A stretch of DNA of 64,000 nt from an uncultured delta proteobacterium (GCA_963745035.1 CAVUVW010000002.1:1-64000); one strand, 5' to 3'; positions 3,283 to 54,049 are shown, counted from the first letter of the stretch. The notes: a model not told the origin generated them from the letters alone. Numbers and translations: made by a program.

Positions 3283-4295
3283 ATGTAGGCATCAGGCTCG
3301 AGGCAACAGGCAACAGCGGAAACGTCAAAATCTTTGGCGCCATTCTCAGTGCCCTGCTGCTTGCCGTTTGTTCGTCGGCTCAGGGGCAGCCGCTCACAAA
3401 CATTCCCCGCATCGGCGCGCTGCATCTAGGTACGCCCCAGGCCGCGAGCGTTCCCATCGAAGCTTTTCAGCGCGGCTTGCGCGAGCTTGGTTATGTCGAG
3501 GGCAAAAACATTGTCGTCGAGTATCGCTACGCCGATGGCAAGGACGAAAGATATGGCTCTTTGGCGGCCGAACTTGTCGCCTTGAAACCGGCGGTGATTG
3601 TCGCCTGGGGCACGGATGTCACCGCGGCGGTAAAGAAAACCACGACGACGATTCCCGTCGTTTTCGCTCTCGCTGATCGGCCCGACGTTCTGGGGCTTGT
3701 CAGCAGTCTCGCCCGGCCCGGTGCCAACATCACCGGGCTCACCACACTCAATTTCGAGCTGAGCACCAAACGCTTGGAGTTGCTGAAGGAAACGATCCCC
3801 AATTTGACCCGCGTGGCCGTGTTGGGATTGCACCATCCCCTAGTCCCCATCACGGTCAAGGAAACCGAGGTCACAGCGCGATCGCTGGGCATCCAGCTTC
3901 AGGCAATCGAGCTCAAGGATCCACGTGATCTCGACGGCGTATTCACGCGTTTCGGCAAGGACTCGCCTGCAGCGCTACTGCTGTTGCCGGGCCGTGAAGT
4001 TGTTTATGGACCGCGCACAGTTTCCCTTGCGCTCAATCATCGTCTAGCCACTATCGGCGGCCAAACGGTGCTCACCGATAACGGCGGGCTCATGGTTTAT
4101 GGGCCGCGCACCACCGATATGTCGTTTCGTGCGGCGACCTACGTGGACAAGATCCTCAAGGGAACCAAACCGGGAGATCTGCCGGTGGAACAGCCAACGA
4201 AGTTTGACTTCGTCATCAATTTGAAAACCGCCAAGCAGATCGGCCTCACGATTCCGCCCAACGTGCTGGCGCGGGCGGATCGAGTAATCAAATGA
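3279..4295 (+). CDS. COG2984 SBP copy 4
   Basis: Intact 338 aa ORF with signal peptide and family motifs. Confidence 0.92.
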   Translation: MNVGIRLEATGNSGNVKIFGAILSALLLAVCSSAQGQPLTNIPRIGALHLGTPQAASVPIEAFQRGLRELGYVEGKNIVVEYRYADGKDERYGSLAAELVALKPAVIVAWGTDVTAAVKKTTTTIPVVFALADRPDVLGLVSSLARPGANITGLTTLNFELSTKRLELLKETIPNLTRVAVLGLHHPLVPITVKETEVTARSLGIQLQAIELKDPRDLDGVFTRFGKDSPAALLLLPGREVVYGPRTVSLALNHRLATIGGQTVLTDNGGLMVYGPRTTDMSFRAATYVDKILKGTKPGDLPVEQPTKFDFVINLKTAKQIGLTIPPNVLARADRVIK

Positions 4296-5344
4296 GACAA
4301 CGGAGTGCTGGAGTAGTGGAGTCATGGAGTGTTGGTAATGTTCGCGGGAGGTTTTTGACCACGAAAAAAACCGTATTCACTCTTGCTCTCTGCGGTATGT
4401 TTTTTGCCCTCAACCCATCTTCCGATGCACAGCAGCCGAAGAGAGTTCCGCGAATAGGATTCGTCAACACCGAGGGAAGTCCCCAAGCTCCCGGGCCTCA
4501 ATTTGTGGCGTTCCGCCATGGACTGCGGGACCTCGGTTATATCGAGGGTGAAAATATCATTATTGACCTTCGCTACCCCCAGGAAAACACGGAGCGTACC
4601 ACCAGCCTTGTAAATGAGCTTGTGCAGCTTAGGGTGGATCTCCTCGTCCTTGGGGCTCAACCGGCGATCCTCGCAGCGAAGCAGGCCACCAAGACGATTC
4701 CCATTGTCATCGTCACGACCCAGAATCCAGTCGCGGCTGGTTTTGTCGACAGCCTGGCGCGGCCCGGTGGCAATATCACCGGCGTCACCAGACTTACCCG
4801 TGAGTTGGCCGGGAAACGGCTCGAGTTGCTCAAGGAGGTGCTCCCGGATACAGCGCGGGTCGGCGCGCTTGTGAACGAGACACAGACGGTAAGTGATTTT
4901 ACACCGTATGAGGCTCCGGCACGCGCATTGAAGATACAGCTTCAACTGCTCAAGGTACGAGAGCCAAACCCCGATTTCGAAGCGGCATTACAAGCTGCAG
5001 CGAAGTGGCGCGCCACCGCGCTCATCACAGTCAGCGGTTCGCTTTTCAATCGCCATATAAGGCGTTTCGCCGACCTGGCCATAAAACACCGTCTACCGTC
5101 CATGCACGAGAGGATTCGGTACGTCGAAGAAGGCGGTTTTATCTCCTATTCGGCCAATGACGCCGCCAATTACCGCCGAGCCGCCACATATGTCGATAAG
5201 ATCCTAAAGGGCGCGAAACCTGCGGAGCTGCCTGTCGAGCAGCCGACGGATTTCGATCTAGCGATCAATCTCAAAACCGCAAAACAGATCGGTTTAACCA
5301 TTCCGCCGAATGTTTTGGCCAGAGCAGATCGGGTGATTCGGTAG
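4292..5344 (+). CDS. COG2984 SBP copy 5
   Basis: Intact ORF with family motifs. Confidence 0.92.
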   Translation: MRQRSAGVVESWSVGNVRGRFLTTKKTVFTLALCGMFFALNPSSDAQQPKRVPRIGFVNTEGSPQAPGPQFVAFRHGLRDLGYIEGENIIIDLRYPQENTERTTSLVNELVQLRVDLLVLGAQPAILAAKQATKTIPIVIVTTQNPVAAGFVDSLARPGGNITGVTRLTRELAGKRLELLKEVLPDTARVGALVNETQTVSDFTPYEAPARALKIQLQLLKVREPNPDFEAALQAAAKWRATALITVSGSLFNRHIRRFADLAIKHRLPSMHERIRYVEEGGFISYSANDAANYRRAATYVDKILKGAKPAELPVEQPTDFDLAINLKTAKQIGLTIPPNVLARADRVIR

Positions 5345-5373
5345 AACGTGGGTGGTTAGACGCGCGAGGTCTT

Positions 5374-5778
5374 TTAGCGGTCCCTGGTCAGATCAATGAT
5401 GCCTTTGCGGAACCGGATGGTGAGCTTGAAGTGCTTGAGAAAATTGATTCCTAGAAGACCGTCGACCCCACTCTCCGGCGGCAGGTCGTGGCACAGGACC
5501 TCTAGATTGTCGACCTTTTGTCCTATTGCCATGGCGGAACGCACCGTTGTACATGGGGCGTACTCAACGCCGCTGCCAGTGATAATACGTTGGCGGCCCA
5601 ACCCGGGGTTTGCCGGGTCATAGCCGAGACGCGCCATTATGTCGACGGCCACGATCGTTATGCTAGCTCCAGTGTCTAGGATCACAGGAATCAAGAAAGT
5701 CGATCTGTCGTCGGCAGATTCGAGCAGAAGGTCAACCACAATCGATGAAGCAGAAGGATCATAAACCACTCGGGGCAT
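5374..5778 (-). CDS. Retropepsin-like (clan AA) aspartyl protease
   Basis: ILDTGAS catalytic motif and C-terminal GLLGINFL motif. Confidence 0.85.
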   Translation of the reverse strand: MPRVVYDPSASSIVVDLLLESADDRSTFLIPVILDTGASITIVAVDIMARLGYDPANPGLGRQRIITGSGVEYAPCTTVRSAMAIGQKVDNLEVLCHDLPPESGVDGLLGINFLKHFKLTIRFRKGIIDLTRDR

Positions 5779-6008
5779 TAAAAAATAACCCCGGTATCAG
5801 GAGGGAGGCTGCCGGTGAAATGAATACAAAGATTTCCGGAATGTTTTTTAAGGGCGCGATGAATTTCTTCGCGGTCCTTGCTGTGGGCTAGCACGCGTCC
5901 CTTGCGAAGAGATGTGGCAGCATCCAATTGAAAATCTTCGAGGAGAAGCCACTGATCGGGGTATTTGGCTTTGATTTTTTCTTTACTGAGTAACGGGTTC
6001 TTGGTCAT
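5778..6008 (-). CDS. Small DUF5678-like partner protein (TA-like pair with the protease)
   Basis: KYPDQWLL...[12 protein letters not shown] pattern; TAATG stop/start coupling to the protease. Confidence 0.65.
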
Positions 6009-6093
6009 GAAGATGGTCTCCTACAACAGGCACGCCATCTCCTCTTCGCGCGGGACACGGAGTACGGATGGCATGGATCAAATTATAGCCCTT

Positions 6094-6212
6094 GAGCTAT
6101 CGGTAGAACAACCGACCACATTTGAGCTGGTGATTAATTTGAAAGCGGCGAAGCAGCTCGGACTGACGATTCCGCCGAATGTGCTGGCGAGGCGGATCGG
6201 GTGATTCGATGA
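6094..6212 (+). pseudogene. Orphan 3' tail of a COG2984 gene
   Basis: [33 protein letters not shown] with no upstream gene body; its stop overlaps the ATG of copy 6. Confidence 0.85.
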
Positions 6213-7228
6213 AAACAGGAATCAGGCACAAGGCAACAGGCAACAGTAAGAGAGTCCAGATCGCTGAACTCCTGCTCTTCGCTCTGGTCCTGGGCCTCTT
6301 CGGTTCCACGGACGCGCAGCCGCAGGCTAAAATACCGATGATCGGTTGGCTCGATGCTCGTCCCCCTTCGGTCGGCGGTGGTCGCGAGTTATTCGCGCGC
6401 GAATTCCGTGCACTTGGTTACGTCGAAGGCAAGAACATTGCGTTCGAGTTTCGCAGTGCTGACAACAAGCTCGATCGCCTCCCAGCCTTGGCCGATGAGT
6501 TGGTCGGTCTCAAAGTCGACGTGCTCTTCACGCCTGCAGGTGACGAGGCTCTCACCGCAAAGAAGGCGACCAAAACAATCCCAATTGTTTTTGCGGGCGT
6601 TGCTGATCCTGTTGCGATTGGCTTAGTCGACAGCCTGGCGCGCCCGGGAGGAAACGTCACTGGGTTTTCTACAATTGCGCCGGTGCTGGCGGGCAAGCGC
6701 CTGGAGTTACTCAAGGAAACTATCCCTCGGCTTTCTCGCGTCGCGGTATTGTGGGACCCAAAATCAAGCGCGTCCGCACAATCCTGGAAAGAAAGCCAAC
6801 TCGCCGCGCGGGAACTCGGGCTGCACCTTTATTCCACGGAAGTCAGCAGCGCGGATAGATTCGATGGCGCATTCCAAGAAGCAATCAAGGCCGGTAGCGT
6901 CGCCCTAACCGTAATTGCGAGCCCGTTAGTGAATACCAATCAAAAACGGATCGCCGACTTGGCTCTCAAACACCGGCTGCCGGCGATCTACTCGCGGGAA
7001 GATTTTGCCGACAGCGGCGGCTTGATGTCCTACGGACCCGACCGCACCGAACCTTACCGGCGCGCGGCGGTTTATGTGGACAAGATCCTCAAAGGCACCA
7101 AGCCCGCTGAGCTGCCGGTCGAGCAGCCAGCAAAATTCGAGTTCATCATCAACCTAAAGGCGGCGAAGCAGATCGGTCTGACGATTCCACCGAACGTGCT
7201 GGCCAGAGCGGATCGGGTAATCAGATGA
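6209..7228 (+). CDS. COG2984 SBP copy 6
   Basis: ORF from MKTGIRHKATGN with family motifs. Confidence 0.92.
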   Translation: MKTGIRHKATGNSKRVQIAELLLFALVLGLFGSTDAQPQAKIPMIGWLDARPPSVGGGRELFAREFRALGYVEGKNIAFEFRSADNKLDRLPALADELVGLKVDVLFTPAGDEALTAKKATKTIPIVFAGVADPVAIGLVDSLARPGGNVTGFSTIAPVLAGKRLELLKETIPRLSRVAVLWDPKSSASAQSWKESQLAARELGLHLYSTEVSSADRFDGAFQEAIKAGSVALTVIASPLVNTNQKRIADLALKHRLPAIYSREDFADSGGLMSYGPDRTEPYRRAAVYVDKILKGTKPAELPVEQPAKFEFIINLKAAKQIGLTIPPNVLARADRVIR

Positions 7229-7425
7229 TCGAACAATCGAAAACCTGTGCTGAGCTATGTCGAAGCATCGAAAATCCGAAAATGGCGAGGCGATTCGGCG
7301 AGCGGGGCTGGCAAGGGCGGACAAGATGATTCGGTGAACACTAAAGGCGGCGGAGACTTAAAACTGTCGTTTCATGACGGGGTACGACGGAGTTGGAACA
7401 TGACCTCAATCGTTTGTGTTTTGCG

Positions 7426-7632
7426 CTATGGCGACACCTGGTATTTGACTGGTAAAAGGTCAGCAAGATTCAAATGTTTTGACGCGTCCAAGATCTCGAT
7501 ACCAATGATTCGGTTGTCAGCGCCGATGTCCAAGACTACGTCCTCCGTTGAGCGCCTATTGATGACTTCCTGCTTGCGTTCGTCCAAGCGAATATATACC
7601 AGGTCGGCCTTTGAGTTATACCGAATCTCCAT
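7426..7632 (-). CDS. DUF2283-like putative antitoxin
   Basis: MEIRYNSKADLVYIRL...LDIGADNRIIGIEILDAS pattern. Confidence 0.8.
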   Translation of the reverse strand: MEIRYNSKADLVYIRLDERKQEVINRRSTEDVVLDIGADNRIIGIEILDASKHLNLADLLPVKYQVSP

Positions 7633-7897
7633 CGTCGATCTCCCATTTCCCGTAAAAGACCTAAACAGTGACGGTAACTGTAGCATCCCCATCAATAGCG
7701 TAAAAGACTTCGATCTTTTTCTTTTCGTAGAATCTCCCCAAACGAGTCTGGTTGAAGCCATAGATTTTACTCTTGCCCAAACGGCCGTATTTCGCGGGTA
7801 TCGGACGTCCGCTGTTGATGACCTCGGTGATCTCGTCCGAACTTGCGCCTCTTTCTACCGCGCGCTCAAGAGTATGAGAATCAATCCGAATGACCAT
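7616..7897 (-). CDS. DUF4258-like (RelE/BrnT-type) putative toxin with in-frame TAG at 7661-7663
   Basis: HTLERAVERGAS N-terminus; VTVTV*VFYGKWE C-terminus; directly upstream of the DUF2283-like gene. Confidence 0.7.
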
Positions 7898-8068
7898 TAT
7901 CGCGGGGTTAGGTTAGCTGTTCATGTGAACGCCGCTTAAGAAACAAGAGTACCTTGAATTGGTTATCCGTACAAAGAAAACAAAACTTATGCAAAGTGCG
8001 CCTGCTTTCTGGTTATTAACAGCATTTTCGATTTTCGATTTTCGATTAAAACCCAAGAGAACAAACCG

Positions 8069-9151
8069 ATGAACGTATTCCCTTCGAAGTCTCTTTCCGA
8101 CAATCCAAAACCTGTCCCTTCGATAAACTCAGGGCAGGCTCTGAGGCATGCCGAAGGATCGGCAATCCAAAATCGAAAATGGTTGTGTCTTTCGATGATC
8201 GCTTTGGGAATCGTGATCTGCGGGGCTGTCGCTCAGGCGCAGCAGCCGAAGAAAGTCGCGCGCATCGGCGTGCTCCTTTCCGGCTCACGGAGTCCCATCT
8301 GGGGGAGCCGTTCAAAAAGCGCTGCGCGAGCTTGGTTACATCGAGGGACAAAACATCGTCATCGAATATCGTAACGCTGACGGAAGAACCGACCGCCAGA
8401 CCCGGGCTGGCGAAGGAACTGGTTGCCATGAAAGTAGACGTGTTAGTCGCGGGCGGCGGCAATGATGTGACGACAGGCTCTGATGCGAGCAACGAAGTCG
8501 ATCCCCATCGTAATGACGGCAGGAAGCAATCCCGTTGAGCGAGGAATAATATCCAGCCTTGCCCGTCCGGGAGGCAATGTCACAGGTATAACAGCGAATT
8601 GGGATGATCTCAAGCGGAAAACGGTTGGAGTTGCTGAAGGAAACCATTCCCAAGACTTTCACGGATAGCGGTGCTGTGGAACTCCAGCGGCGGACGCGAG
8701 TACGCAATGGAAAGCGAGCCAAGCCGCTGCGAAACAGATGAATCTGCAACTCCATTCCATGCAAATACGGACCGGTGATGATTTGGAAACGCATTCAAAG
8801 CAGCCGTCAAGGCGCGTAGCGGAGCGGTGGCCGTAACTCAGAGTCCGGGGTGGGAGTTCCAATACAACAGCGTCATCCAGCTCGCCACAAAACATCGACT
8901 GCCCGCAATCTATGCCGCTCCTGAAGTATGCAGAAGCCGGCGGGCTGATGTCCTACGGCGGAAGCCGCAGCGACCTCGCCCGCCGCGCCGCGGTCTATGT
9001 CGATAAAATTCTAAAAGGCAGCAAGCCCGCCGATCTGCCGGTGGAACAGCCGACGAAATTCGAGTTGGTGATCAATCTTAAAACGGCCAAGCAGATCGGA
9101 CTTGTTGTTCCGCCCAACGTTTTAGCCAGAGCCGATAAGGTGATGCGATGA
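8069..9151 (+). CDS. COG2984 SBP copy 7 (several indels)
   Basis: Fragments 8069-8374, 8179-8538, 8483-8668, 8912-9151 give a colinear family sequence. Confidence 0.8.
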
Positions 9152-9230
9152 GCACAGGCAACAGGCAGAGGCAGGCAGTCATCAGGGGCAAGGAGCTAGC
9201 GCCTTCTGCTTCGCTCTCTGCGCCTCCGCG

Positions 9231-10214
9231 GTGAATCCGATCTTTGACCTCCGACTTCTGATCTCTGCTTTCTGCGCTCTGCTCTTGGCGCTTTGTTCAT
9301 TCGCCGAAGCGCAGCAATCCAAAGTTCCTCGGATCGGAGGGATATTCAACGATCGTGGAAAACTCACGGACTCCTTCCGTCAAGGATTGCGAGACCTCGG
9401 CTATGTCGAAGGACAGAACCTCCTTGTCGAATATCGCTACATAGAAGGAGACAGGGACCGCATCCCCGGCCTCGTCAACGAACTCTTACAACTCAAAGTC
9501 GATCTCCTCGTCGCCACCTCGCCGCCGACGATCCGCGCCGCCAAACAAGCAACAAAGGCGATTCCTATCGTCATGGTGACGCCTCAGGATCCGGTCGCCA
9601 CCGGCATAGTCGACAGTTTTGCGCGCCCGGGTGGAAACATCACGGGGTTGACTACGCTGACGCGACAGCTGAGTGGAAAAAGTTTGGAGTTGCTCAACGA
9701 GGTGATTCCGACGCTGTCGCGGGTCGGAATTCTCGCGGTAGAGGGTCCGACCGTGCCGGGTAACGCGTTACGCGTATACGAGGCCACAGCCCGCGACCTA
9801 AAGATCGCCGTGCATCCCCTACCGGTAAGCAGTCCGAAGCCCGATATCGATGGCGCATTTCGAGATGCGGTGAAGAATCGCGTCAACGCGCTTATCACCG
9901 CTAGAAACAACGTCCTTGCACCCCACACTAAAAAGATCGCCGAGCTCGCCATAAAACACCGGCTGCCTTCAACCCTGGAACGAGCTGATTACGCAGATGC
10001 GGGAGGCCTTATGTCGTACGGATCCAACGATGCCGAGGGCTTTAGGCGCGCGGCGTGGTACGTCGATAGGATTTTAAAGGGCACAAAGCCCGCCGACCTG
10101 CCCATCGAGCAGCCGACCAAGTTCGAGTTGGTATTCAATTTAAAAACGGCCAAACAGATCGGCTTGACGATTCCTCCCAATGTATTGGCGAGAGCAGATC
10201 GAGTCATCAGATGA
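9231..10214 (+). CDS. COG2984 SBP copy 8
   Basis: Intact mature domain; start may be the coupled ATG at 9148 with one indel. Confidence 0.9.
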   Translation: MNPIFDLRLLISAFCALLLALCSFAEAQQSKVPRIGGIFNDRGKLTDSFRQGLRDLGYVEGQNLLVEYRYIEGDRDRIPGLVNELLQLKVDLLVATSPPTIRAAKQATKAIPIVMVTPQDPVATGIVDSFARPGGNITGLTTLTRQLSGKSLELLNEVIPTLSRVGILAVEGPTVPGNALRVYEATARDLKIAVHPLPVSSPKPDIDGAFRDAVKNRVNALITARNNVLAPHTKKIAELAIKHRLPSTLERADYADAGGLMSYGSNDAEGFRRAAWYVDRILKGTKPADLPIEQPTKFELVFNLKTAKQIGLTIPPNVLARADRVIR

Positions 10215-10260
10215 CATTTTAGATTTTCGATTGCCGATTTTCGATTACGGAGAAAAACAA

Positions 10261-11376
10261 ATGCAACGGCAGTTCCGCATTCAGTTTGGGGTTTCTCTTT
10301 CCGACAATCTAAAATCCAAAACCTGTCCCTTCGATAAACTCAGGGCAGGCTCTGAGCCATTTCGAAGGGTCAAAAATCCAAAATGGGTTGGGATTATCGC
10401 TCTCGGTATCACACTTACACTATGTGGGGCTGTGGCCCAGGCGCAGCAGACGGGTGCAAAGGTCCCGCGGATCGGGTATCTCACAAGCTTTGGCTCCCCC
10501 ACCTCTTCCCCTGTACAACGTCAACTCGGCGCATTTCGAAATGGTTTAAAGGACCTGGGTTATGTTGAGGGGAAAAACATTCTACTCGAATATAGACATC
10601 CCACCGACAACCCTGACCAAGGCCCGGATCTGGCTGCCGAGCTCGTACGCTTGAAAGTCGACGTTCTTATTGCCCAAGATCCCTCGGCAGTTCGCGCCGC
10701 CAAGCAGGCAACCAAGACGATCCCGATTGTGATGATTACCAACCAAGATCCCGTTGCGGCCGGCTTGGTGGATAGTCTGGCGCGCCCCGGCGGAAACATC
10801 ACCGGTCTTACGCGGCTCACTCGAGAGCTGAGCGGGAAGCGGTTGGAAATTCTAAAGGAGGCGGTCCCGTCGGTATCGCGCGTTGGCGTCCTCCGGGTAC
10901 GGCCGACCGCGCTAGGGACTGGGAATTCTTTTAAAAATTATCAGGGGGCCGCCGATGTCTTGAAGATTCAGCTCATATCGCTGCAGGTACAACGGCCGAA
11001 CCCCGACGTGGACGGCGCCTTTCAAACCGCTACGAAGGAGCGAGTGACAGCGCTCGTTACAGTGAGCAATGCTGTGCTTTCGCAGCATATGAAAAAGATT
11101 GCCGAACTCGCCGTCAAGAGCCGTTTGCCATCGATGTGCGAAGCGATTCGCTATGTCGATGCCGGCTGTCTCATGTCCTACGCGACGGACGATCTCGAGA
11201 GTTTCGAGCGCGCGGCCGTTTACGTCGACAAGATTCTCAAGGGAGCAAAGCCCGCCGATCTTCCCGTCGAACAGCCCACGAAATTCGAGCTGGTGATCAA
11301 TCTGAAAACGGCCAAGCAGATCGGATTATCCATTCCGCCCAATACATTGGCTAGAGCAGATAAAGTAATCCGATGA
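10261..11376 (+). CDS. COG2984 SBP copy 9
   Basis: GGAG RBS, long repeat-derived leader, family motifs. Confidence 0.9.
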   Translation: MQRQFRIQFGVSLSDNLKSKTCPFDKLRAGSEPFRRVKNPKWVGIIALGITLTLCGAVAQAQQTGAKVPRIGYLTSFGSPTSSPVQRQLGAFRNGLKDLGYVEGKNILLEYRHPTDNPDQGPDLAAELVRLKVDVLIAQDPSAVRAAKQATKTIPIVMITNQDPVAAGLVDSLARPGGNITGLTRLTRELSGKRLEILKEAVPSVSRVGVLRVRPTALGTGNSFKNYQGAADVLKIQLISLQVQRPNPDVDGAFQTATKERVTALVTVSNAVLSQHMKKIAELAVKSRLPSMCEAIRYVDAGCLMSYATDDLESFERAAVYVDKILKGAKPADLPVEQPTKFELVINLKTAKQIGLSIPPNTLARADKVIR

Positions 11377-11462
11377 TCCCACAATCTAAAATCGAAAATC
11401 CAAAATCTAAAATCGTGTGGATTCCACCGAATGTGCTGGCGCAGAGCAGATCGAGTGATTCG

Positions 11463-12566
11463 ATGACAGAGGTCAGACAACAGAATGCAGCGGTCAGAAA
11501 TCAGAGGGAAAGAGTTAACCGCCTGGATGCGAAGTGCTTTCTCAGCGCTCTCTGCGCCTCCGCGGTGAATCCGATCTTTGACCTCCGACTTCTGATCTCT
11601 GTTCTGTGCGCTTTGCTTTTTGCGGTCTGTTTTCCGGTCGAGGCGCAGCAGCCGGAAAAAGCGCCGCGTATCGGATATTTGTCCAGCGCCACTCGACGTT
11701 CCTCACTCTCCGATGATGCCTTCCGGCAAGGACTGCGGGACTTGGGTTATATCGAAGGGAAAAATATCGTCATCGAGTACCGCTATGCGGACGGCAAGGC
11801 AGACCGCCTCGCCAAACTCGCGGCGGAACTGGTGCAGCAGAAAGTTGATGTCATTGTCACGTCAGGAGCGCCGCCAGTGATTCACGCTGCACAGCAGGCG
11901 AGCCGCACAATCCCCATTGTCATGCGCGGCACTGTCGTCGATCCTGTTGAGGCTGGATTTGTGGCTAGCCTGGCCAAGCCAGGCGGAAACATTACTGGCC
12001 TAAGTGATCTCGATTCGGATTTACATCCAAAACGACTCGAGTTGCTCAAAGAGGCCGTTCCACGAATTTCTCGTGTAGCCATTCTCTGGCCTCTGCCACA
12101 ACAAGAGCAAGCGGGCAAAAAACTCACTGCCGCGGCACAAGCGTTCGGCATCCAAATCCAATCGGTCGTTGTGACGGGACCGTCCGGATTGGAGGGTCTG
12201 GAGCGCGGCCTGTCCGCGATAAGCCGGGAGCGGCCCAATGCAGTTTTGATTGCGTCATCACAGCTGATCAATGAGCATCGGGTACGAATCGTTGAATTCG
12301 CGACCAAGAACCGCATGCCCACGATATCCGCTTCGAGCTCAATGGCAGATGTCGGAGGGCTCATGGTCTACGGTGCAAGTTCTCATGATTTGGCGCGTCG
12401 CGCCGCCACTTACGTCGACAAGATTCTCAAGGGAGCCAAGCCCGCCGACCTTCCGGTTGAGCAACCGACCAAGTTCGAGTTCATCATCAATCTGCAAGCG
12501 GCGAAGCGGATTAACGTCACAATTCCACCGAATGTTTTGGCGCGAGCGGATCGGGTGATTAGGTGA
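11463..12566 (+). CDS. COG2984 SBP copy 10
   Basis: MTEVRQQ leader; preceded by a duplicated family tail at about 11420-11466. Confidence 0.9.
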   Translation: MTEVRQQNAAVRNQRERVNRLDAKCFLSALCASAVNPIFDLRLLISVLCALLFAVCFPVEAQQPEKAPRIGYLSSATRRSSLSDDAFRQGLRDLGYIEGKNIVIEYRYADGKADRLAKLAAELVQQKVDVIVTSGAPPVIHAAQQASRTIPIVMRGTVVDPVEAGFVASLAKPGGNITGLSDLDSDLHPKRLELLKEAVPRISRVAILWPLPQQEQAGKKLTAAAQAFGIQIQSVVVTGPSGLEGLERGLSAISRERPNAVLIASSQLINEHRVRIVEFATKNRMPTISASSSMADVGGLMVYGASSHDLARRAATYVDKILKGAKPADLPVEQPTKFEFIINLQAAKRINVTIPPNVLARADRVIR

Positions 12567-12605
12567 GGCGTGAGCCGTGAGGCGAGAGGCTTGAGACGGA
12601 AAACA

Positions 12606-13589
12606 ATGAAGAGAGTAATTTGTCGCGTTGCCGTTTGCGCTTTGCTCTTTGCGCTTTGCTGTTCTGCAGAGGCACAGCCGCAAACAAAGATACCCAAAAT
12701 TGGTTGGCTTGGCGGCCGTTCACCGTCAGGACCTAGTGGCGCAGGGGAAAGCTTTCGCCGCGCGCTCCGTGAGCTCGGTTACGTCGAAGGGAAGACAGTG
12801 ACTATTGAATATCGTTACGCACAGGACAAGTTGGACCGCTTGCCCGCTCTAGCCGATGAACTGGTTCGGCTCAACGTTGACTTGCTCATCGCGCCCACGA
12901 CGGTAGAAGTCCGCGCCGCGAAGAGCGCCACCAAAACCATTCCGATTGTTTTCTATAATGTACCTGACCCGGTCGGCTCAGGGTTGATCGATAGCTTAGC
13001 GCGACCTGGAGCAAATATTACGGGTTTTAGTACACTCAATGCGCTGTTGTCTGGGAAACGGTTGGAGCTTCTTAAGGAAACGCTTCCCAAGCTCACCCGC
13101 ACAGCAGTGTTGTGGGACCCGCAGAATCCGGCCTCTGTCCAACAATGGAAAAACAGTCAACAGCCGGCCCGAGAATTGGGGCTGCAACTGTATTCCCTTC
13201 AGGTGAGCAGTGCCGACAAATACGGTGACGCCTTCAAAGACGCGGTCGAAGCACGCAGTGGCGCCATCTTGCTCACCCAAGCCACTTTGCTCGCTGCGAA
13301 CCTTCCACTGGTTGTGCAATTGACCGCAAAAAACCGCCTGCCTTCGATTTACCATGGACAGGAATACGTCACCCTAGGTGGGTTGATGTCTTACGGCCCG
13401 GACGACACCGAGCGTTTCCGCCGGGCCGCAGTGATCGTTGACAAGATCCTTAAAGGAGTGAAGCCTGCCGATCTGCCCGTCGAACAGCCAACAGATTTCG
13501 AATTCGCCATCAATCTAAAGACCGCTAAGCAGATAGGATTAGTAATTCCGCCCAACGTATTGGCGAGAGCGGATCGGGTGATTCGGTGA
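12606..13589 (+). CDS. COG2984 SBP copy 11
   Basis: MKRVICRVAV signal peptide and family motifs. Confidence 0.92.
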   Translation: MKRVICRVAVCALLFALCCSAEAQPQTKIPKIGWLGGRSPSGPSGAGESFRRALRELGYVEGKTVTIEYRYAQDKLDRLPALADELVRLNVDLLIAPTTVEVRAAKSATKTIPIVFYNVPDPVGSGLIDSLARPGANITGFSTLNALLSGKRLELLKETLPKLTRTAVLWDPQNPASVQQWKNSQQPARELGLQLYSLQVSSADKYGDAFKDAVEARSGAILLTQATLLAANLPLVVQLTAKNRLPSIYHGQEYVTLGGLMSYGPDDTERFRRAAVIVDKILKGVKPADLPVEQPTDFEFAINLKTAKQIGLVIPPNVLARADRVIR

Positions 13590-14692
13590 GCACAGGCAAC
13601 AGGCACAAGGCAACAGGCAACAGGGGCGAAGCGATCAGAAATCAGAGGGAAAGAGTTAGCCGCCTGGATACGAAGTGCTTTCTCAGCGCTCTCTGCGCCT
13701 CCGCGGTGAATCCGATCTTTGACCTCCGACTTCTGATCTATATTCTGTGCGCTTTGCTCCTTGCGCTCAGCTCGTCCGTTGAGGCGCAACAGAAGGCAAA
13801 GGCACCTCAGATTGGATGGCTCGGACTTGCTGGTTCGGGCAGTAGAATTGAGCTCTTCCGACGAGAGCTTCGTGAACTCGGCTATGTTGAGGGCAGCAAT
13901 ATAACCATCGAAGTACGAACTGCGGACGATAAAATTGACCGGCTGCGGGTGCTGGCTGAGGAGCTGACCCGTCTTAAAGTTGACGTGCTCGTGGTCCCCT
14001 CGACGCCCGGCGCCATTGCCGCGAAGAATATTACACGAACAATTCCCATCGTTTTTATCGGCTCGGCCGATCCTGTAGCAGCAGGGCTGGTGGACAGCCT
14101 GGCGCGGCCCGGGGGAAACGTCACCGGGTTCACCACCATCGGAGCCGTACTGGCTGGAAAACGATTGGAGGTGCTCAAAGAAACCGTACCCCATCTCCCC
14201 CGTGTCGCAGTACTCTGGAACTCAGACGATCCAACGAGTTTGCAACAGTGGAAAGAAAGCCAACTACCGGCACGCGATTTGGGCCTCCAGCTCGAATCCA
14301 TGGAGGTGCGCAGCACCAGTGGATTGGAGAATGCGTTCAAAGCGGCGACTAAGGCACGTAGCGCTGCTCTCGCGGTAACACACAGCGCGCCGTTCGTTTC
14401 CGCGCGGCAACGGATCGCGGAGCTGGCCATCAAGAATCGTTTGCCCGGCATCTATCCCCGGGGAGATTTTGTCGTCAGCGGCGGCCTGATTTCCTACGGC
14501 GTAGACGAGGTCGAACCCTACCGACGCGTCGCGTCGATCGTCGACAGAATTCTCAAAGGCACAAAGCCGGCGGACTTGCCGGTGGAGCAGTCCACAAAAT
14601 TCGAGATGGTGATCAATTTGAAGACGGCCAAGCAGATCGGTCTGACGATTCCGCCCAATGTCTTGGCGAGGGCAGATCGGGTGATCCGGTGA
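13586..14692 (+). CDS. COG2984 SBP copy 12
   Basis: GTGA overlap with copy 11; family motifs. Confidence 0.9.
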   Translation: MSTGNRHKATGNRGEAIRNQRERVSRLDTKCFLSALCASAVNPIFDLRLLIYILCALLLALSSSVEAQQKAKAPQIGWLGLAGSGSRIELFRRELRELGYVEGSNITIEVRTADDKIDRLRVLAEELTRLKVDVLVVPSTPGAIAAKNITRTIPIVFIGSADPVAAGLVDSLARPGGNVTGFTTIGAVLAGKRLEVLKETVPHLPRVAVLWNSDDPTSLQQWKESQLPARDLGLQLESMEVRSTSGLENAFKAATKARSAALAVTHSAPFVSARQRIAELAIKNRLPGIYPRGDFVVSGGLISYGVDEVEPYRRVASIVDRILKGTKPADLPVEQSTKFEMVINLKTAKQIGLTIPPNVLARADRVIR

Positions 14693-14730
14693 GGCGTGAG
14701 CCGTGAGGCGAGAGGCGTGAGACGAAAACA

Positions 14731-15712
14731 ATGACGAGGACTATTTGTTTCCTTGCCGTTTGCGTTCTCCTTGCGCTTTGTTTTTCTGCCGAGGGGCAGC
14801 AGGCGGCGAAAATCCCACGGATCGGGTATCTAACCGCCGACTCCCGTTCCGGCCGCGCAGACGTTCGTGCTGAGGCTTTCCGGCAGGGTTTGCGCGCGTT
14901 GGGCTACGTCGAGGGAAAAAACATTATCATTGAGTGGCGGCAGGCGGAGGGAAAACTCGATCGCCTTAGCGCCCTTGCGACCGAGCTAGTGCGTCTCAAG
15001 GTAGACGTCATCGTTACGGGTGGTCCCACAGCAACCCGCCCAGTGAAGGAAGCGACGACTACGATTCCCATTGTCATGACGCAGGATAGCGATCCTGTTG
15101 GGAGCGGCTTCGTCGCCAGCCTGGCACGTCCAGGTGGAAACATTACGGGACTGTCCAACCTTGCCTCGGAGATAAGCGGAAAACGACTGGAGCTTCTCAA
15201 GGAGATTGTTCCTAAGCTCGCTCGCGTGGCGGTCCTAGGAATGTCGACCAATCCAGGCAATTCACAATCGCTGCGAGAGACGGAACTCGCGGCAGGCGCG
15301 CTCGGAGTGCAGATTCTTTACTTGGATATGCGAGATTCCAAGGATATTGATGCTGTATTGCGAACCGCGAGCACGGAGCGCGCGGATGCAGTCCTCGTGC
15401 TGAACTTCCCAGGCAAACATTTCCCGAGGGATTTCGGACCTCGCGGTAAAGAACCGCCTGCCGGCGATCTATTATAGTGCGGGAGCCGCCGTCGACCGCG
15501 GAGGGCTTATGAGCTACGGCGTGAGCCTCACCGACTTGGACCGTCGCGCCGCTATCTATGTGGACAAGATTTTAAAAGGCGCCAAGCCTGCTGATTTGCC
15601 GGTGGAGCAGCCCACGAAGTTCGAGCTGGTGATCAATTTAAAAGCTGCCAAGCAGATCGGATTGACTATTCCACCCAATGTTTTGGCGAGAGCGGATAGG
15701 GTAATTAGATGA
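14731..15712 (+). CDS. COG2984 SBP copy 13 (indel near 15430)
   Basis: ORFs 14731-15477 and 15509-15712 join. Confidence 0.87.
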
Positions 15713-15940
15713 TTGGACAATCCAAAACCTGTGCCGAGCCATGTCGAAGTTTCGAGAATCCAAAACCTGTCCTGAGGCGATTCGGCCCAACGTGCTGGCT
15801 GAGAGAGCGGATCGAGTTACCAGCTAAGTTGAGGGTGCATATTGAAGAGTGAACTGATTACCCTGAGAGTTACCGGCTCAGCCGTTCTTGAGCGACACAC
15901 GACGATTCTGCAATCTTGGAAATCGGAATCGCTCGGTTCG

Positions 15941-16026
15941 CTAGAGATAATTTTTCAGTTGAAGGAATTTCAAACTCGGCACGGCAGGTATTTTGCGGTC
16001 GTTGGTCAGAAACGACTTGCAATCAC
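15941..16026 (-). pseudogene. C-terminal remnant of a PIN-domain (VapC-like) toxin
   Basis: Manual translation DCKSFLTNDRKIPAVPSLKFLQLKNYL* directly after the antitoxin stop; FLTND is a PIN C-terminal motif. Confidence 0.65.
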
Positions 16027-16257
16027 TCACCACTCGCGCCGTTCCCTGTTTACATGTTTGCCAGCGTCAACTTTTTTCCAAACGTCCTTTCCAAGCCCCT
16101 GGAGGTCCAAAATGGAGACGGGGGCGGCACTTTCCGTTGCTGCGCTGAGAATATGAATAACTTCTTGGGCCACAGATCTATGCTTCCGGTGCGCGCGTGC
16201 CTGAATTTTTTTGTACAAGCGATCCGGCAGATTTTTGATATTCAGAGTAGCCATCAT
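16027..16257 (-). CDS. FitA/Arc-like ribbon-helix-helix antitoxin
   Basis: MATLNIKNLPDRLYKKIQARA...RSVAQEVIHIL; ends HVNRERREW. Confidence 0.82.
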   Translation of the reverse strand: MMATLNIKNLPDRLYKKIQARAHRKHRSVAQEVIHILSAATESAAPVSILDLQGLGKDVWKKVDAGKHVNRERREW

Positions 16258-16395
16258 TTCCTCCAGAACGCCACCAGTATGGAGGACACCATAGTAACGG
16301 TTAAGTATCGAACACACCACGGTGGAAACGACTTTGGAGTAGCCCGCCAGTGTTCGAAGGGTCGAGTGTCAAGTGTCGAGTGCGGGGAGCAAAAC

Positions 16396-17385
16396 ATGAG
16401 GAGACAACTATTTTGCCTTGCTCTCTGCGCTTTATTGCTTTCGCTTTGCGTTCCGCTTGGGGCGCAGGAGGCGAAGAAAATACCGCGCATCGGCTACGTG
16501 AGGGTGGTCGGTGGCCCCTCTCCTCCCGGCCCCAACGTCGAGGCGTTTCGGCAAGGGCTACAAAATCTCGGTTACGTCGAGGGGAAAAATATCCTGATCG
16601 ACTTTCGCTACGCCGAGGGAAAGCCCGACCGTGTCCCAAGCCTTGTGGCCGACCTGGTGCAAGCCAAAGTCGATGTTCTTATTTCCGGGGACGCGCCCGC
16701 GATCCGCGCCGCCAAGCTGGCGACCACGACGATTCCGATTGTTATGGTCATCAATCAGGACCCCGTGGCCACCGGGCTTGTCGATAGCCTGGCTCGTCCG
16801 GGTGGAAACGTCACGGGCATCAGCAGGCTTACCCGCGAATTGAGCGGCAAGCGGTTGGAGTTGCTTACGGAGATCATCCCTGCGATATCCCGCGTCGGCG
16901 TGCTTTGGGACGAGACCGGCGAAGGATCCAAGATCAGTTTCAAGGAGTACCAAACCGCCGCCCGCGCCTTGAAAATCCAACTGCAATCCCTGGAGGTGCG
17001 AGATCCGGACCCCGATTTGGCCGGTGCGTTTCAGTCGGCTGTCAAAGGACGCGCCGGCGCGTTGATTACAATAGGGAATTCCTCGCTCAATCGCCGCCGA
17101 AAGCAAATAGCTTCCTCCGCCATCAAGCACCGCCTGCCTTCGATGTACGAGTCGAGTCTGTGGATAGAGCCGGGCGGCCTGATTTCTTATTCATCCGACA
17201 ATGCCGAGAGCTACCGGCGCGCCGCGCTGATGGTCGATAAGATTCTCAAGGGCGCCAAACCCGCCGATTTGCCGGTGGAGCAGCCGACGAAATTCGAGCT
17301 GGTGATCAATCTGAAAACGGCTAAACAGATCGGTCTGACGATTCCTCCAAATGTTTTGGCGCGGGCGGATAAGGTGATCCGATGA
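16396..17385 (+). CDS. COG2984 SBP copy 14
   Basis: GGGGAG RBS, MRRQLFCLAL signal peptide, family motifs. Confidence 0.92.
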   Translation: MRRQLFCLALCALLLSLCVPLGAQEAKKIPRIGYVRVVGGPSPPGPNVEAFRQGLQNLGYVEGKNILIDFRYAEGKPDRVPSLVADLVQAKVDVLISGDAPAIRAAKLATTTIPIVMVINQDPVATGLVDSLARPGGNVTGISRLTRELSGKRLELLTEIIPAISRVGVLWDETGEGSKISFKEYQTAARALKIQLQSLEVRDPDPDLAGAFQSAVKGRAGALITIGNSSLNRRRKQIASSAIKHRLPSMYESSLWIEPGGLISYSSDNAESYRRAALMVDKILKGAKPADLPVEQPTKFELVINLKTAKQIGLTIPPNVLARADKVIR

Positions 17386-18428
17386 AAGTGATCGTAAATC
17401 CTCAGTGGTCGTCGGCTGTCAGCAAAAGCATAGGAGCAAAAGCCATGACCAAATCTAATGTCTTGTGGCTCCTGGTAATTTTTCTTATTGGAACTGGCGC
17501 CCACGCCGAGGCGCAGCAGCAGGTGAAATCCCCCGCGCGCATCGGTTGGCTCTGGTACGGCTCGGCGCCGGCGACGCTACCCACCATCGAGACGGCGATC
17601 GTCGATGGACTCCGAGAGCTCGGTTACGTGGAAGGCAAGACCCACGTGTTCGAGTATCGCTTTGCGGAGGGGCGTCCGGAAAAGCTGCCCGAGCTTGCCG
17701 CCGCCTTGGCTCGGCAAAAGGTCGACATAATGATCGCTCTCGGAGGCGATATTGCAGCAGCCTTAAAAAAAGCAACGGCAACCATCCCCATCGTCGTCGG
17801 CACCAGCGATGACCCGGTGCGTGCCTCGCTCATCTCGAGCCTGGCGCGGCCGGGAGGAAACGTCACCGGGGTAAGTTTCGTCATGGATGAACTGGCGGGC
17901 AAACGCATCCAATTGCTCAAAGAAATAAATCCAAAGCTGTCGAGCTCAGGCGTGCTGTGGAATCCGGCGCATGCCGACAACGAATTGAAGGAAATACAGA
18001 TCGCTGCGGAAGAGTTCCATGTGAAACTGCGTTTGTTCAAAGTCGAGCGCATGGACGAGTTCGATAATGCTTTTGCCGCCATGAACAAAGAAACGTTCGA
18101 CTCACTGATCGTGATACCGTCGCGTCTCACGTCGCTGCGAAGAGTGCAAATTGCCGGACTAGCTTTGAAGTCGCGCATCCCAATGGCTTCGGGGTGGCGC
18201 GAGTTCTCGGAGGCGGGTGGCCTGCTTTCCTACGGACCCAACCGCGCGCAGGTCGCGCGGCGCATCGCCTACTACGTCGATAAGGTCCTCAAAGGCGCCA
18301 AGCCCGCGGATTTGCCAGTGGAAACCCCAACCAAATTTGAACTGGTGATCAATCTGAAGACTGCCCAACAAATTGGCCTGACGATTCCGCAGTCAGTGCT
18401 TTATCGGGCAGATAACGTGATTCGATAA
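17382..18428 (+). CDS. COG2984 SBP copy 15
   Basis: Intact ORF; more divergent tail IPQSVLYRADNVIR. Confidence 0.92.
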   Translation: MKVIVNPQWSSAVSKSIGAKAMTKSNVLWLLVIFLIGTGAHAEAQQQVKSPARIGWLWYGSAPATLPTIETAIVDGLRELGYVEGKTHVFEYRFAEGRPEKLPELAAALARQKVDIMIALGGDIAAALKKATATIPIVVGTSDDPVRASLISSLARPGGNVTGVSFVMDELAGKRIQLLKEINPKLSSSGVLWNPAHADNELKEIQIAAEEFHVKLRLFKVERMDEFDNAFAAMNKETFDSLIVIPSRLTSLRRVQIAGLALKSRIPMASGWREFSEAGGLLSYGPNRAQVARRIAYYVDKVLKGAKPADLPVETPTKFELVINLKTAQQIGLTIPQSVLYRADNVIR

Positions 18429-18507
18429 GAACAGGCGTGAGCCGTGAGGCGGGGCCTCAGATAGAAGCAGCGGAGTGCGGATGGAAATGCTCGAATCGAG
18501 AATGATT

Positions 18508-18852
18508 TTACGGAAACGCGAGCGTGTTCTTAAGCGCGCGGTCGACTTGCTCCATTACTGCAGCCGTCAGACTTCCCAGTTTTCTGAGGATTCGTTGTTT
18601 ATCTACCGCTTTGATTTGTTCAGTTACGACCTTCGAAGGAAACGTGAGACGAGCCGTGCCCTTTGGGATGACCACATGACTGGGGGAGAGGCGAGCCGTG
18701 TTTTTCGTCAGGGGCACGACAACAACGAGCTGACTGAAGTGGTTGGTGCTGTCATTGGAAACCACAATGGCGGGACGAGTCTTTTTGATCTCAACCGCAA
18801 TAGTAGGGTTGAGGTTAACGACGACGACATCACCCCGCCTTACGGCGACCAC
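18508..18852 (-). CDS. mazF: MazF/PemK family toxin
   Basis: RRGDVVVVNLNP...EIKKTRPAIVVSND...EQIKAVDKQR motifs. Confidence 0.9.
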   Translation of the reverse strand: MVAVRRGDVVVVNLNPTIAVEIKKTRPAIVVSNDSTNHFSQLVVVVPLTKNTARLSPSHVVIPKGTARLTFPSKVVTEQIKAVDKQRILRKLGSLTAAVMEQVDRALKNTLAFP

Positions 18853-19135
18853 TGGACTCCTCCTTCTCCAGGATGGCCCAGGCCTCGTCGTCGCTCAGTT
18901 TCCAATCGTTTATCATGTCGCGTTCCTCTTGAGCTTCGCGAGTTGACCGCTGGGCATAGTAGCGCGCGTATTCGCGCTCCATTTGTTTGCGCGACACCGA
19001 GTCAAGGAAGGCTTCGAGCATGTTCGTAATGATGCGGCTGCGGCGCGCTTTAGGAATCACTGTATTCGCCCGCTTGACCAGATCTCGAGGCAGGGAAACG
19101 CTGACGACCTCATATTTTCTCTTAGCCGACGGCAT
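18830..19135 (-). CDS. CopG/RHH antitoxin
   Basis: VVSVSLPRDLV...RSRII pattern; overlaps the toxin start. Confidence 0.8.
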   Translation of the reverse strand: MPSAKRKYEVVSVSLPRDLVKRANTVIPKARRSRIITNMLEAFLDSVSRKQMEREYARYYAQRSTREAQEERDMINDWKLSDDEAWAILEKEESSGRRKAG

Positions 19136-19167
19136 GGGACCCTCAAAGCTATATAACTTGCTTAATA

Positions 19168-19196
19168 ACGTTATTCACTAACCAAATTGAGGTCAA
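19168..19196 (-). promoter_or_regulatory. Sigma70-like promoter of the MazEF-type module with palindromic operator
   Basis: TTGACC-17 bp-TAACGT on minus strand; AATAACGTTATT palindrome over the -10. Confidence 0.55.
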
Positions 19197-19239
19197 TTGG
19201 GCGACGAGATGTCCTGGCGCGGGCGGATAAGGTGATTCG

Positions 19240-20268
19240 ATGAAAGTAGTCAGGAGTCAGTGGTCAGTAGTGAGGAGCAGCTTCTTCTGCTTCGCTCTCT
19301 GCGCTTTCCTCTTTGCGCTTTGCATTCTGCTCTTTGCGCTCGGCACGGCTGTCCACGCCCAGCAACCTTCGAAGATGCACAAAATCGGTTGGCTTGGAAT
19401 GCGTCCTGATTCAAAGGAAGTTATTGAGCTGTTCCGGCGAGAGCTTCGCGGCCTTGGCCACGTGGAAGGCAAAAACATCACGATTGAGTATCGAAACGCC
19501 GAAGGGAATGGCGATCGTCTTGTAGCGCTAGCTGAAGAATTGGTACGTCTCAAAATCGATTTGATCATCGCGCCTTCGACGACTGAAGTCCTGGCTGCGA
19601 AAAAGGTTGCTGGGACGGTCCCTATCGTCTGTCTGAGCATGGGCGATCCTGTTGCGCTCGGGCTGGTGGATAGCTTGGCAAAACCTGGAGGCAATATAAC
19701 CGGAATAACCAATGTCTCGACCTTATTGGCGGGAAAGCGGCTCGAGCTACTCAAGGAAACAAAGCCCAAGCTCGCTCGTGTCGGGATCCTCTGGAATCCC
19801 CAGGACCCCACCGACCTCCCCCAATGGAAAGAAAGTCAATCGGCTGCAAAGGACTTGGGTCTGGAGACTCATTCGTTGGAAGTAAGCAGCGGTGACAGAT
19901 ACGGCAATGCGTTTACCGCCGCGACTAAAGCACGAAGCGATTCGCTTGCAGTGATCGCAAGTCCTTTGACGCTATCTCATCGAAACCAGATTACAGGGCT
20001 GGCGGCGAAATATCGGCTGCCGTCGATATACAGTCGGGAGGACTTCGTGACTGCTGGCGGGTTGATGTCCTACGGCAGAGATCAGGCCGAACGTTATCGG
20101 CGCGGTGCAGTAATGACCGACAAAATACTAAGAGGCGCCAAGCCGGCTGATCTGCCGGTCGAACAACCAACCAAGTTCGAGTTGGTGATCAATCTCAAAA
20201 CCGCCAAGCAGATCGGCCTGACAATTCCGCCGAATGTCTTGGCAAGGGCGGACCGGGTCATCAGATGA
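19240..20268 (+). CDS. COG2984 SBP copy 16
   Basis: MKVVRSQWSVV leader; preceded by orphan tail 19209-19243. Confidence 0.92.
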   Translation: MKVVRSQWSVVRSSFFCFALCAFLFALCILLFALGTAVHAQQPSKMHKIGWLGMRPDSKEVIELFRRELRGLGHVEGKNITIEYRNAEGNGDRLVALAEELVRLKIDLIIAPSTTEVLAAKKVAGTVPIVCLSMGDPVALGLVDSLAKPGGNITGITNVSTLLAGKRLELLKETKPKLARVGILWNPQDPTDLPQWKESQSAAKDLGLETHSLEVSSGDRYGNAFTAATKARSDSLAVIASPLTLSHRNQITGLAAKYRLPSIYSREDFVTAGGLMSYGRDQAERYRRGAVMTDKILRGAKPADLPVEQPTKFELVINLKTAKQIGLTIPPNVLARADRVIR

Positions 20269-20316
20269 CATTTTAGATTTTCGATTGCCGATTTTCGATT
20301 AAAGGAAAAGGAACGC

Positions 20317-22388: not shown

Positions 22389-22420
22389 GGCGTGAGTGGT
22401 GAGGCGTTAGGCGCGAGTCG

Positions 22421-23437: not shown

Positions 23438-23485
23438 GCAGGGACGAGTGTCGGGTGACGAGTGGACGGAGACAGAGGAAAAGAC

Positions 23486-54046: not shown

Positions 54047-54049
54047 AAT

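Follow-up and report, generated by a model that had tools for sequence, protein, structure and literature searches.

The window, i.e., the whole 64,000-nt stretch of DNA analyzed here, stems from an uncultured delta proteobacterium (GCA_963745035.1, CAVUVW010000002.1:1-64000) and carries at its left end a head-to-tail array of plus-strand genes for substrate-binding proteins (SBPs; PF04392, ABC_sub_bind, COG2984), into which four small modules of the toxin-antitoxin (TA) type, termed M1 to M4, are set. All large plus-strand open reading frames (ORFs) between positions 113 and 26511 matched the Pfam family, and tblastn with one SBP of the window (gene 12570) revealed about 23 SBP units including broken ones, with 42-63% identity to the query. 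Bases 1-60 were recognized by tblastn as the tail of one more copy, so the array extends past the left edge of the window. The units at 1290-2189, 2330-3279, 8171-9148, and 14725-15709 are broken. Junctions between SBP genes frequently overlap (ATGA), and the leaders contain the low-complexity repeats GTCAGGAGTCAGTGGTCAG, GGCAACAGGCAAC, and GATTTTCGATTTTCGATT as well as elements resembling repetitive extragenic palindromes or miniature inverted-repeat transposable elements (REP/MITE-like). The best-conserved DNA of the unit is the 3'-terminal 100 nt of the SBP gene, which is 60-82% identical between the copies of the window and matches other metagenome-assembled genomes (MAGs) with up to about 90% identity over 43-150 nt. 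No ABC permease or ATPase gene was found by Pfam to accompany the approximately 23 SBP genes, and an amidohydrolase gene follows the array. Interruptions of at least 300 bp between SBP matches occur inside the array just at 5342-6012, 7226-8170, 15710-16395, and 18426-19203. Because these four gaps are the only ones of that size, the four modules are the sole non-SBP genes in the array, as had been claimed in an earlier interpretation made from the DNA sequence without database searches (the sequence-only reading). Their GC content is 0.48-0.54, compared with 0.560 ± 0.014 for 17 SBP genes, and in the remaining 37.5 kb of the window Pfam revealed no family of the TA type. The features are listed in Table 1.

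Table 1. Features of the SBP array and of the four TA-type modules and their surroundings (positions in the window).
Feature	Position	Strand	Basis or remark
SBP array	1..26511	+	About 23 PF04392/COG2984 units, several broken; tblastn and Pfam
M1 downstream gene, retropepsin-like aspartyl protease, 134 amino acids (aa)	5374..5778	-	Asp_protease_2 E 4.5e-9; VILDTGAS active-site motif
M1 upstream gene, DUF5678-like, 76 aa	5778..6008	-	Local hidden Markov model (HMM), ESM-Atlas
Relic of a DUF5678 gene, last 18 codons	6021..6074	-	87-89% DNA identity to DUF5678 gene ends of related loci L004, L037, and L065
Frameshifted SBP 3' remnant of about 35 terminal codons, connected with the stop/start junction of the following gene	6094..6204	+	Lost copy
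REP/MITE-like leader element with SBP-3'-like tail	7229..7340	+	Paralogous copy at 15713-15830; copies in many related loci
M2 partner gene, DUF2283, 68 aa from internal ATG	7426..7632	-	Pfam E 1.3e-11
M2 toxin-type gene, DUF4258 (BECR, RelE/ParE superfamily)	7616..7897 (to stop: 7661-7897)	-	Pfam, homologues
SBP copy with several frameshifts, directly after the M2 slot	8069..9151	+	tblastn
M3 stub of a PIN (VapC-type) toxin, about 30 codons from its C-terminus	15941..16060	-	Exhaustive phmmer
M3 antitoxin, FitA/VapB-like ribbon-helix-helix (RHH), 76 aa	16027..16257	-	PF22513 FitA-like_RHH E 4.4e-10
M4 toxin, MazF/PemK endoribonuclease family, 114 aa	18508..18852	-	PF02452 E 5.4e-30, residues 5-109
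M4 upstream gene, antitoxin position, 101 aa	18830..19135	-	Conserved beside MazF in related loci L038 and L071
M4 promoter-like site: TTGACC (19196-19191), 17-nt spacer, TAACGT (19173-19168)	19164..19196	-	Relaxed scan
Remnant of a lost SBP copy (last approximately 12 codons), running into the start of gene 19240	19199..19243	+	Family comparison

M1 is intact and consists of two small, translationally coupled genes, the stop codon of the first overlapping the start of the protease gene. The 76-aa protein matched Pfam DUF5678 weakly (E 0.033), and its nearest clusters in the ESM-Atlas were annotated as "putative DUF5678" (score 0.94). A local HMM of DUF5678 and DUF5678-like proteins, which had the protein itself among its training rows, gave an E-value of 4.8e-30. 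Its 103 homologue clusters (55-94% identity, mostly 76 or 80 aa, some of them from Binatia MAGs) were all without a precomputed Pfam domain. An AlphaFold model with a pLDDT (predicted local distance difference test) of 76.8 had no fold match in PDB (best E 1.1), and a PDB sequence search gave chance-level matches only. The protease, for which 510 homologue clusters were found, matched PDC-M08B, a component of a candidate defence system in PADLOC (E 2.3e-11). Of PDC-M08, component B was thus matched; neither the small protein nor any other of the seven module proteins had a PADLOC match. Literature searches revealed nothing tying DUF5678 or retropepsins to TA function and no account of PDC-M08 by name. 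By its architecture alone M1 may be called TA-like.

In M2, the match of the toxin-type protein to DUF4258 (PF14076) reached 24.7 bits, just under the cut-off of 25, and the same family is precomputed in 24 of the 39 homologue clusters listed. Codon 79 is an in-frame TAG at a position where the homologues have a conserved tyrosine, and the next 14 codons are still in frame. The homologues are mostly 93 aa long, and the copy of the window lacks their conserved C-terminal YVFYGKWE. The start of the DUF2283 gene would overlap the end of a full-length toxin gene. A PDB sequence search with the DUF4258 profile yielded matches at chance level only. A passage of PMC11980606 lists DUF4258 as an uncharacterised BECR-fold family of the RelE/ParE superfamily among the type II TA toxins. 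The corresponding table there gives the antitoxin before the toxin and MqsA or HicB-type partners, whereas in M2 the toxin gene comes first, its partner is DUF2283, and it carries the premature stop. No paper naming DUF4258 and DUF2283 together was found in literature searches.

For M3, the peptide encoded at 15944-16060 of the minus strand was found by phmmer to match the C-terminal end of a PIN protein of 149 aa (58% over 33 residues; library-wide E 6e-4), which itself matches Pfam PIN with an E-value of 1.6e-15. Pfam, a PDB sequence search, and a local PIN HMM did not detect the stub; the exhaustive phmmer search alone did. The toxin is without its first approximately 115 residues, and the catalytic part is gone. 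M3 thus resembles VapBC and FitAB in its RHH antitoxin and its PIN C-terminus, but it differs from them in having no complete PIN toxin and, judged from these matches, is an orphan antitoxin. When plasmids were searched by tblastn with the M3 antitoxin, one solo antitoxin without partner toxin was obtained, on a Klebsiella plasmid. The M3 peptide is moreover 82% identical to a 59-aa internally deleted relative (P0263, a metagenome protein), in which the first approximately 30 PIN residues are joined by an internal deletion to the C-terminal approximately 28 residues that survive in M3. In this lineage, the catalytic core may have been lost repeatedly, or its loss may have been inherited.

M4 is again intact. 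Besides the Pfam match given in Table 1, its toxin had an NCBIfam MazF/ChpB match below the cut-off. The 101-aa gene shares 23 nt with mazF and accompanies it in three of three homologous modules. The protein had no Pfam and no PDB match, and the pattern of its N-terminal sequence, a reading and not the result of a tool, suggests that it is RHH-like. Within the promoter-like site lies a perfect palindrome, AATAACGTTATT, at 19164-19175. The layout TTGAC(A/C)-17-TAnnGT precedes all three homologous RHH/MazF modules (window, L038, L071), their palindromes being different. Stringent scans for promoter consensus sequences and terminators gave counts not above those in shuffled sequence. M4 is like MazEF/PemIK in its full-length PemK_toxin match, the overlapping small upstream gene, and the predicted promoter with a palindrome, and it differs in the lack of Pfam and PDB matches for the upstream protein. 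MazF-like proteins also occur in PHROGs. The identities that the sequence-only reading had given to the four modules (DUF5678-like/retropepsin, DUF4258/DUF2283-like, FitA-like with a PIN remnant, and RHH/MazF) were recovered, with the qualifications stated for the small protein of M1, for DUF4258, and for the RHH half of M4. The promoter/operator that it had seen on one module corresponds to the site of M4, which came from a relaxed scan and was kept in all three modules.

To analyze whether such modules recur, one genome per species was scanned with an alignment of 18 SBPs of the window, which led to 76 loci (840 kb). The MAGs concerned stem from soil and groundwater and carry the labels Deltaproteobacteria, Binatia, Syntrophobacter(aceae), Rokubacteria, and others; the source genome is not among them, and the best match is 85% identical. 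The names borne by the closest proteins and loci suggest that the window probably originates from a Binatia-like soil bacterium. Arrays were present in 40 of the 76 loci. Pfam was run on 200 ORFs in 36 array gaps, comprising all 175 in gaps no longer than 2.2 kb and a greedy choice of 25 of 159 in larger gaps, and on 277 small ORFs in 219 kb of flanks of the array-bearing loci. These searches were complemented by tblastn with 45 module proteins and by local HMMs applied to 10,903 six-frame ORFs. In this way, 27 further TA-type modules representing at least 11 family pairs were identified in 14 MAGs (labelled Binatia, "Deltaproteobacteria", Thermodesulfobacteriota, and Syntrophobacter(aceae)). 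The types were Phd/PIN, MazE/PIN, AF2212/PIN, Phd/ParE, Unstab/ParE, RelE/helix-turn-helix, BrnT/CopG, RHH/MazF, DUF2283 with a DUF4258-like partner, DUF5678/retropepsin, and single DUF2442 and DUF1902 genes. The DUF5678/retropepsin architecture of M1 occurs in eight loci (L004, L033, L037, L038, L061, L065, L071, and the window), and a DUF5678-type partner was detected in seven of them, the protease of L033 standing alone. Of the 27 modules, 23 lie at most 250 bp from an SBP gene or stub; the remaining four are 950, 1197, 5294, and 7532 bp away. When only the 40 loci with arrays are considered, 17 of 19 modules are located in the 28.6% of non-SBP DNA that lies at most 850 bp from an SBP gene (binomial p=5e-8). 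Counted per junction, the comparison was 17 of approximately 220 versus 2 of approximately 170 (Fisher p=0.003), with junction numbers estimated from about 1 kb per gene. These results support an enrichment of TA-type modules in and beside COG2984 arrays, which the sequence-only reading had named as a check on its proposal. Modules are by no means universal, as 30 of the 40 array fragments have none, including the 10- to 17-copy arrays of L006, L031, and L035.

The same check concerned orientation. In the window all four modules are on the minus strand, as had been noted, yet a ratio of 4:0 is not beyond chance (p=0.125, two-sided under 50:50). Relative to the strand of the SBP genes, 15 of the 27 related modules are antisense and 12 sense. 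For those at most 250 bp from an SBP the ratio is 14:9 (p=0.40), or 18:9 if the window is included (p=0.12), and for those strictly between two SBP genes it is 10:6. The orientation bias expected across genomes was therefore not found; there is no demonstrable orientation rule, and the antisense placement in the window is due to chance or to a weak preference.

A regularity was observed in the position of the modules relative to the SBP genes. The modules start 0-318 bp past an SBP 3' end, and this 3' end is complete in 26 of 26 cases. Among the adjacent SBP neighbours on the right-hand side, 6 of 18 are bare, 5'-truncated stubs (seven with the stub of M4, which is recognizable at the DNA level only), irrespective of the orientation of the module. 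The difference in truncation between left and right (0 of 26 versus 6 or 7 of 18) is significant (Fisher p 0.003 or 0.0008, respectively). Our interpretation is that 5' fragments of a destroyed secreted protein are eliminated when they are expressed, and that 3' stubs, being silent, persist.

The slots in the window contain further traces of past events. Between M1 and its SBP stub lies the relic of a DUF5678 gene that is different from the DUF5678 gene of M1, so two or more modules have occupied the M1 slot. A multiply frameshifted SBP copy comes after M2, and a broken copy stands before M3. These scars of destroyed SBP copies fit the neutral landing site that had been put forward as one of two roles of the array. 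A "collapsed SBP copy" to the left of M2 and M3 was considered as a scar duplicated with the modules and was dropped, the sequence being a REP/MITE-like leader that is found in many loci and in both orientations. Where modules are homologous, DNA identity (73% for M1 and L038, 73.6% for M4 and L071, 71% for M4 and L038) covers the two genes and about 30 nt upstream. The SBP genes flanking them are not each other's closest relatives, so that homologous modules occupy non-orthologous positions. Gene 6179, located between M1 and M2, has in the closest relative (L001) an 85% identical orthologue that is directly flanked by SBP genes on both sides, with no module. Co-transfer of modules with the adjoining SBP ends was also considered; it is unsupported in the three homologous pairs, in which similarity ends at the gene pair.

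The array contains long exact direct repeats in its intergenic leaders, the longest being 69 nt (11530/13671) and 56 nt (9212/11546), followed by repeats of 50 nt (2282/11556), 45 nt (10203/20257), and 33 nt (1138/19239). Two leader elements used for searches, a 43-nt repeat and a 15-nt motif, were found only inside the array within the window. Because exact direct repeats of up to 69 nt bracket the modules, it is plausible that the array is deletion-prone, as the sequence-only reading had proposed.

The sequence-only reading had likened the locus to an integron. Passages of PMC13108822 describe promoter-bearing TA cassettes in integrons, an enrichment of TA cassettes, and "cassette loss killing". 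In those passages of PMC13108822 that use the word "inverted", it refers to the experimental inversion of a whole integron, so the statement that Vibrio TA cassettes are inverted was not borne out by these passages. As in the Vibrio superintegron and in sedentary chromosomal integrons (PMC13108822, in the same passages), several unrelated, apparently self-promoted type II TA pairs are spread, with enrichment, through a co-oriented repeat array. No Phage_integrase or IntI-type tyrosine recombinase was present among the Pfam-scanned ORFs of the window, beyond which the left end of the array lies, and no inverted repeat resembling attC is shared by the ends of the four slots in a search that used no dedicated attC model. 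The units of the superintegron are unrelated promoterless cassettes, whereas those of the window are diverged paralogues of one family; and here the modules lie in the wreckage of destroyed units, have both orientations in relatives, and include two of four with a dead toxin. The sole recombinase in any array gap examined was a 274-aa tyrosine recombinase (Phage_integrase E 1e-33) encoded in sense orientation at L036 2974-3798 in a Pyrinomonadaceae MAG, with a reverse-transcriptase fragment 2.6 kb further on. From the postulated integron-like design the enrichment of modules remains, but not an orientation rule, a recombinase, or a shared site, and homology ends at the genes.

TA modules gather in integrons, islands, and plasmids, and according to a general model, type II TA modules on chromosomes are selfish addiction elements that reside in variable regions. 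The modules described here agree with this model in being small, seemingly self-promoted mobile pairs with a patchy distribution, a lower GC content, decaying toxins, and orphan antitoxins; they differ from it in that their host site is a specific gene family, namely the COG2984 SBPs. A tie of TA modules to one tandemly amplified chromosomal gene family was not found described in literature searches. Our preferred explanation, which we regard as probable without being confident of it, is that TA or TA-like addiction modules, acquired horizontally, accumulate and turn over in an SBP array that is redundant and tolerates insertions, and that stabilisation of the array is a by-product. According to this explanation, a MazEF-type module (M4), a VapBC/FitAB-type module (M3), a RelE/ParE-superfamily pair (M2), and a DUF5678/retropepsin pair (M1) would have landed in the array, each insertion destroying or displacing one SBP copy, a loss that the approximately 20 remaining paralogues would render tolerable. 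A copy broken in this way would then decay, its 5' part being purged as far as the intact stop codon of the upstream gene, while a silent 3' stub would often survive by the junction serving the downstream gene. Modules would persist and pile up because the loss of a module with a working toxin would be penalised by addiction. Once the toxin was hit, as by the nonsense codon in M2 and the deletion in M3, the module could decay or be replaced, for which the relic upstream of M1 would be an example. Protection of the array from deletion between long direct repeats would then be a by-product and not a design. Of this account, the identities of the modules, the scars, the decay, the enrichment near SBP genes in 14 other MAGs, the non-orthologous positions, and the lack of integron parts are observed, whereas addiction, the succession of events, and the tolerance towards insertions are inferred.

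Several observations weigh against this explanation. M1 is only a candidate TA pair, and 5 of the 27 related modules are single detected genes (two in L018 and one each in L033, L041, and L059b). The background for the enrichment consisted only of the ±10 kb flanks of the same loci, and a stabilising role predicts the enrichment equally well. The asymmetry between left and right scars could result from recombination at the conserved SBP 3' end instead of selection. Since many genes of the window are frameshifted, assembly indel errors may inflate the number of "broken" SBP copies; the stop codon in M2 is a substitution and not an indel. Furthermore, both M1 and M4 are intact and belong to strongly conserved families, and the promoter of M4 is kept in three of three cases, so that at least two modules look maintained. 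Finally, exact repeats of 30-69 nt bracket every module, which makes deletions that remove a module mechanistically plausible, and these could be selected against.

A rival view is that the modules are selected stabilisers, kept because they kill or arrest any cell in which array segments are lost by recombination between direct repeats, in the manner of integron TA cassettes. This view, which is close to the guarding role assigned to the modules by the sequence-only reading, draws on the enrichment of modules inside or adjacent to the arrays of 14 MAGs, on the direct repeats of at least 30 and up to 69 nt that span each module, on the intactness of M1 and M4 and the predicted promoter of the latter, and on the TA enrichment and "cassette loss killing" documented in passages of PMC13108822. 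We nevertheless consider it unlikely, since two of the four toxins are dead, three quarters of the array fragments (30 of 40), among them the long arrays mentioned above, are free of modules, positions are not conserved between relatives, and no orientation rule exists. The broken SBP copies beside the modules also indicate that the array is not being kept intact.

Alternatively, the SBP 3' end of about 100 nt together with the stop/start junction could serve as portable homology, so that units of the form [SBP 3' end]-[module]-[SBP 3' end] would move by homologous recombination in an attC-like manner without a recombinase. Such an exchange of cassettes would account for the strong conservation of the SBP 3' end, for the intact SBP stop before the module in all 26 cases and the bare 3' stub after it in 6-7 of 18 irrespective of orientation, and for the two different modules that the M1 slot has held. 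However, in the pairs M1/L038, M4/L038, and M4/L071 the adjoining SBP ends are not specially alike and similarity is restricted to the gene pair, exact identity within SBP 3' ends is short (35 nt at most in the window, mostly below 27 nt), and the same asymmetry is explained if 5' fragments that are expressed are selected against, which leaves this possibility very improbable. Just as improbable is that the pairs are abortive-infection or phage-defence genes collected by arrays acting as variable regions: the M1 protease matches PDC-M08B, MazF-like proteins are found in PHROGs, and RelE/ParE-superfamily toxins are discussed as defence toxins in a passage of PMC11980606, but PDC-M08 is a candidate system, the other module proteins have no PADLOC match, the array contains no other defence genes, and the tie to SBPs would be left unexplained.

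Besides TA-type modules, the array gaps of the related loci contain other genes, all in sense orientation, for other types of SBPs, a hydrolase, TENA, S1/P1 nuclease, the tyrosine recombinase mentioned above, and sets of histidine kinase and response regulator. The same large dCache-HAMP-GAF histidine kinase and response regulator are encoded in L006 (15011-17802), L010 (6053-9844), L015 (13274-16948), and L035 (7684-11010), and the sets of L010 and L015 include a gene for a 23S-rRNA-IVP (four-helix-bundle) protein. Because four related arrays embed such a set, there are hints that a signalling system, and not a transporter, is served by these orphan SBP arrays. Gaps in L016 (2464-3163, minus strand), L030 (4341-5071), and L074 (6475-9940) contain small ORFs without Pfam match, which in L016 form an antisense pair of 93 and 128 aa with a TA-like layout; these gaps may represent further, unrecognised modules. 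At L018 14031-14570, a gene for glycine reductase selenoprotein A (GRDA) appears to be divided between two ORFs, a split that an in-frame TGA coding for selenocysteine would produce.

Outside the array, the window contains genes split by frameshifts, namely those for MoCoBD (50752-52843), CoA_binding (53602-54010), a hydrolase (54074-54938), PD-(D/E)XK (54993-55490), an NMT1/TPP enzyme (55950-58905), and an M24 peptidase (approximately 48131-49376). The splits in 48131-58905 reflect either widespread pseudogenes or indel errors of the assembly. An IS110-family transposase is encoded at 34411-35622 (plus strand) and an IS4-type DDE transposase at 60893-62098 (minus strand). The latter borders a stretch of low GC content at 59-60.6 kb (0.47-0.51) with small ORFs without family matches, beyond which two more COG2984 genes are located on the minus strand (62569-63931). 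Rfam detected no family in the whole window.

A wider generalisation is conceivable, though we regard it as a speculation with little chance of being correct: the COG2984 arrays of soil Binatia-like and deltaproteobacterial lineages might be gene-capture platforms that work without a recombinase, in which the SBP 3' end and the junction would form a recombination and expression joint for swapping TA or defence modules, and in which the modules would keep the array from collapsing. Such a platform, made of a paralogue family, would be a functional analogue of the integron. If the association of TA-type modules with SBP arrays is general, these arrays would provide a natural system for asking whether addiction modules stabilise repeat-rich DNA outside integrons. 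They would likewise be suited for asking where new TA modules enter chromosomes, as their scars record insertion, replacement, and decay at single slots. The DUF5678-like/retropepsin pair, with its 103 and 510 homologue clusters, would be an abundant, highly conserved, and uncharacterised module of the TA or defence type that is worth testing.

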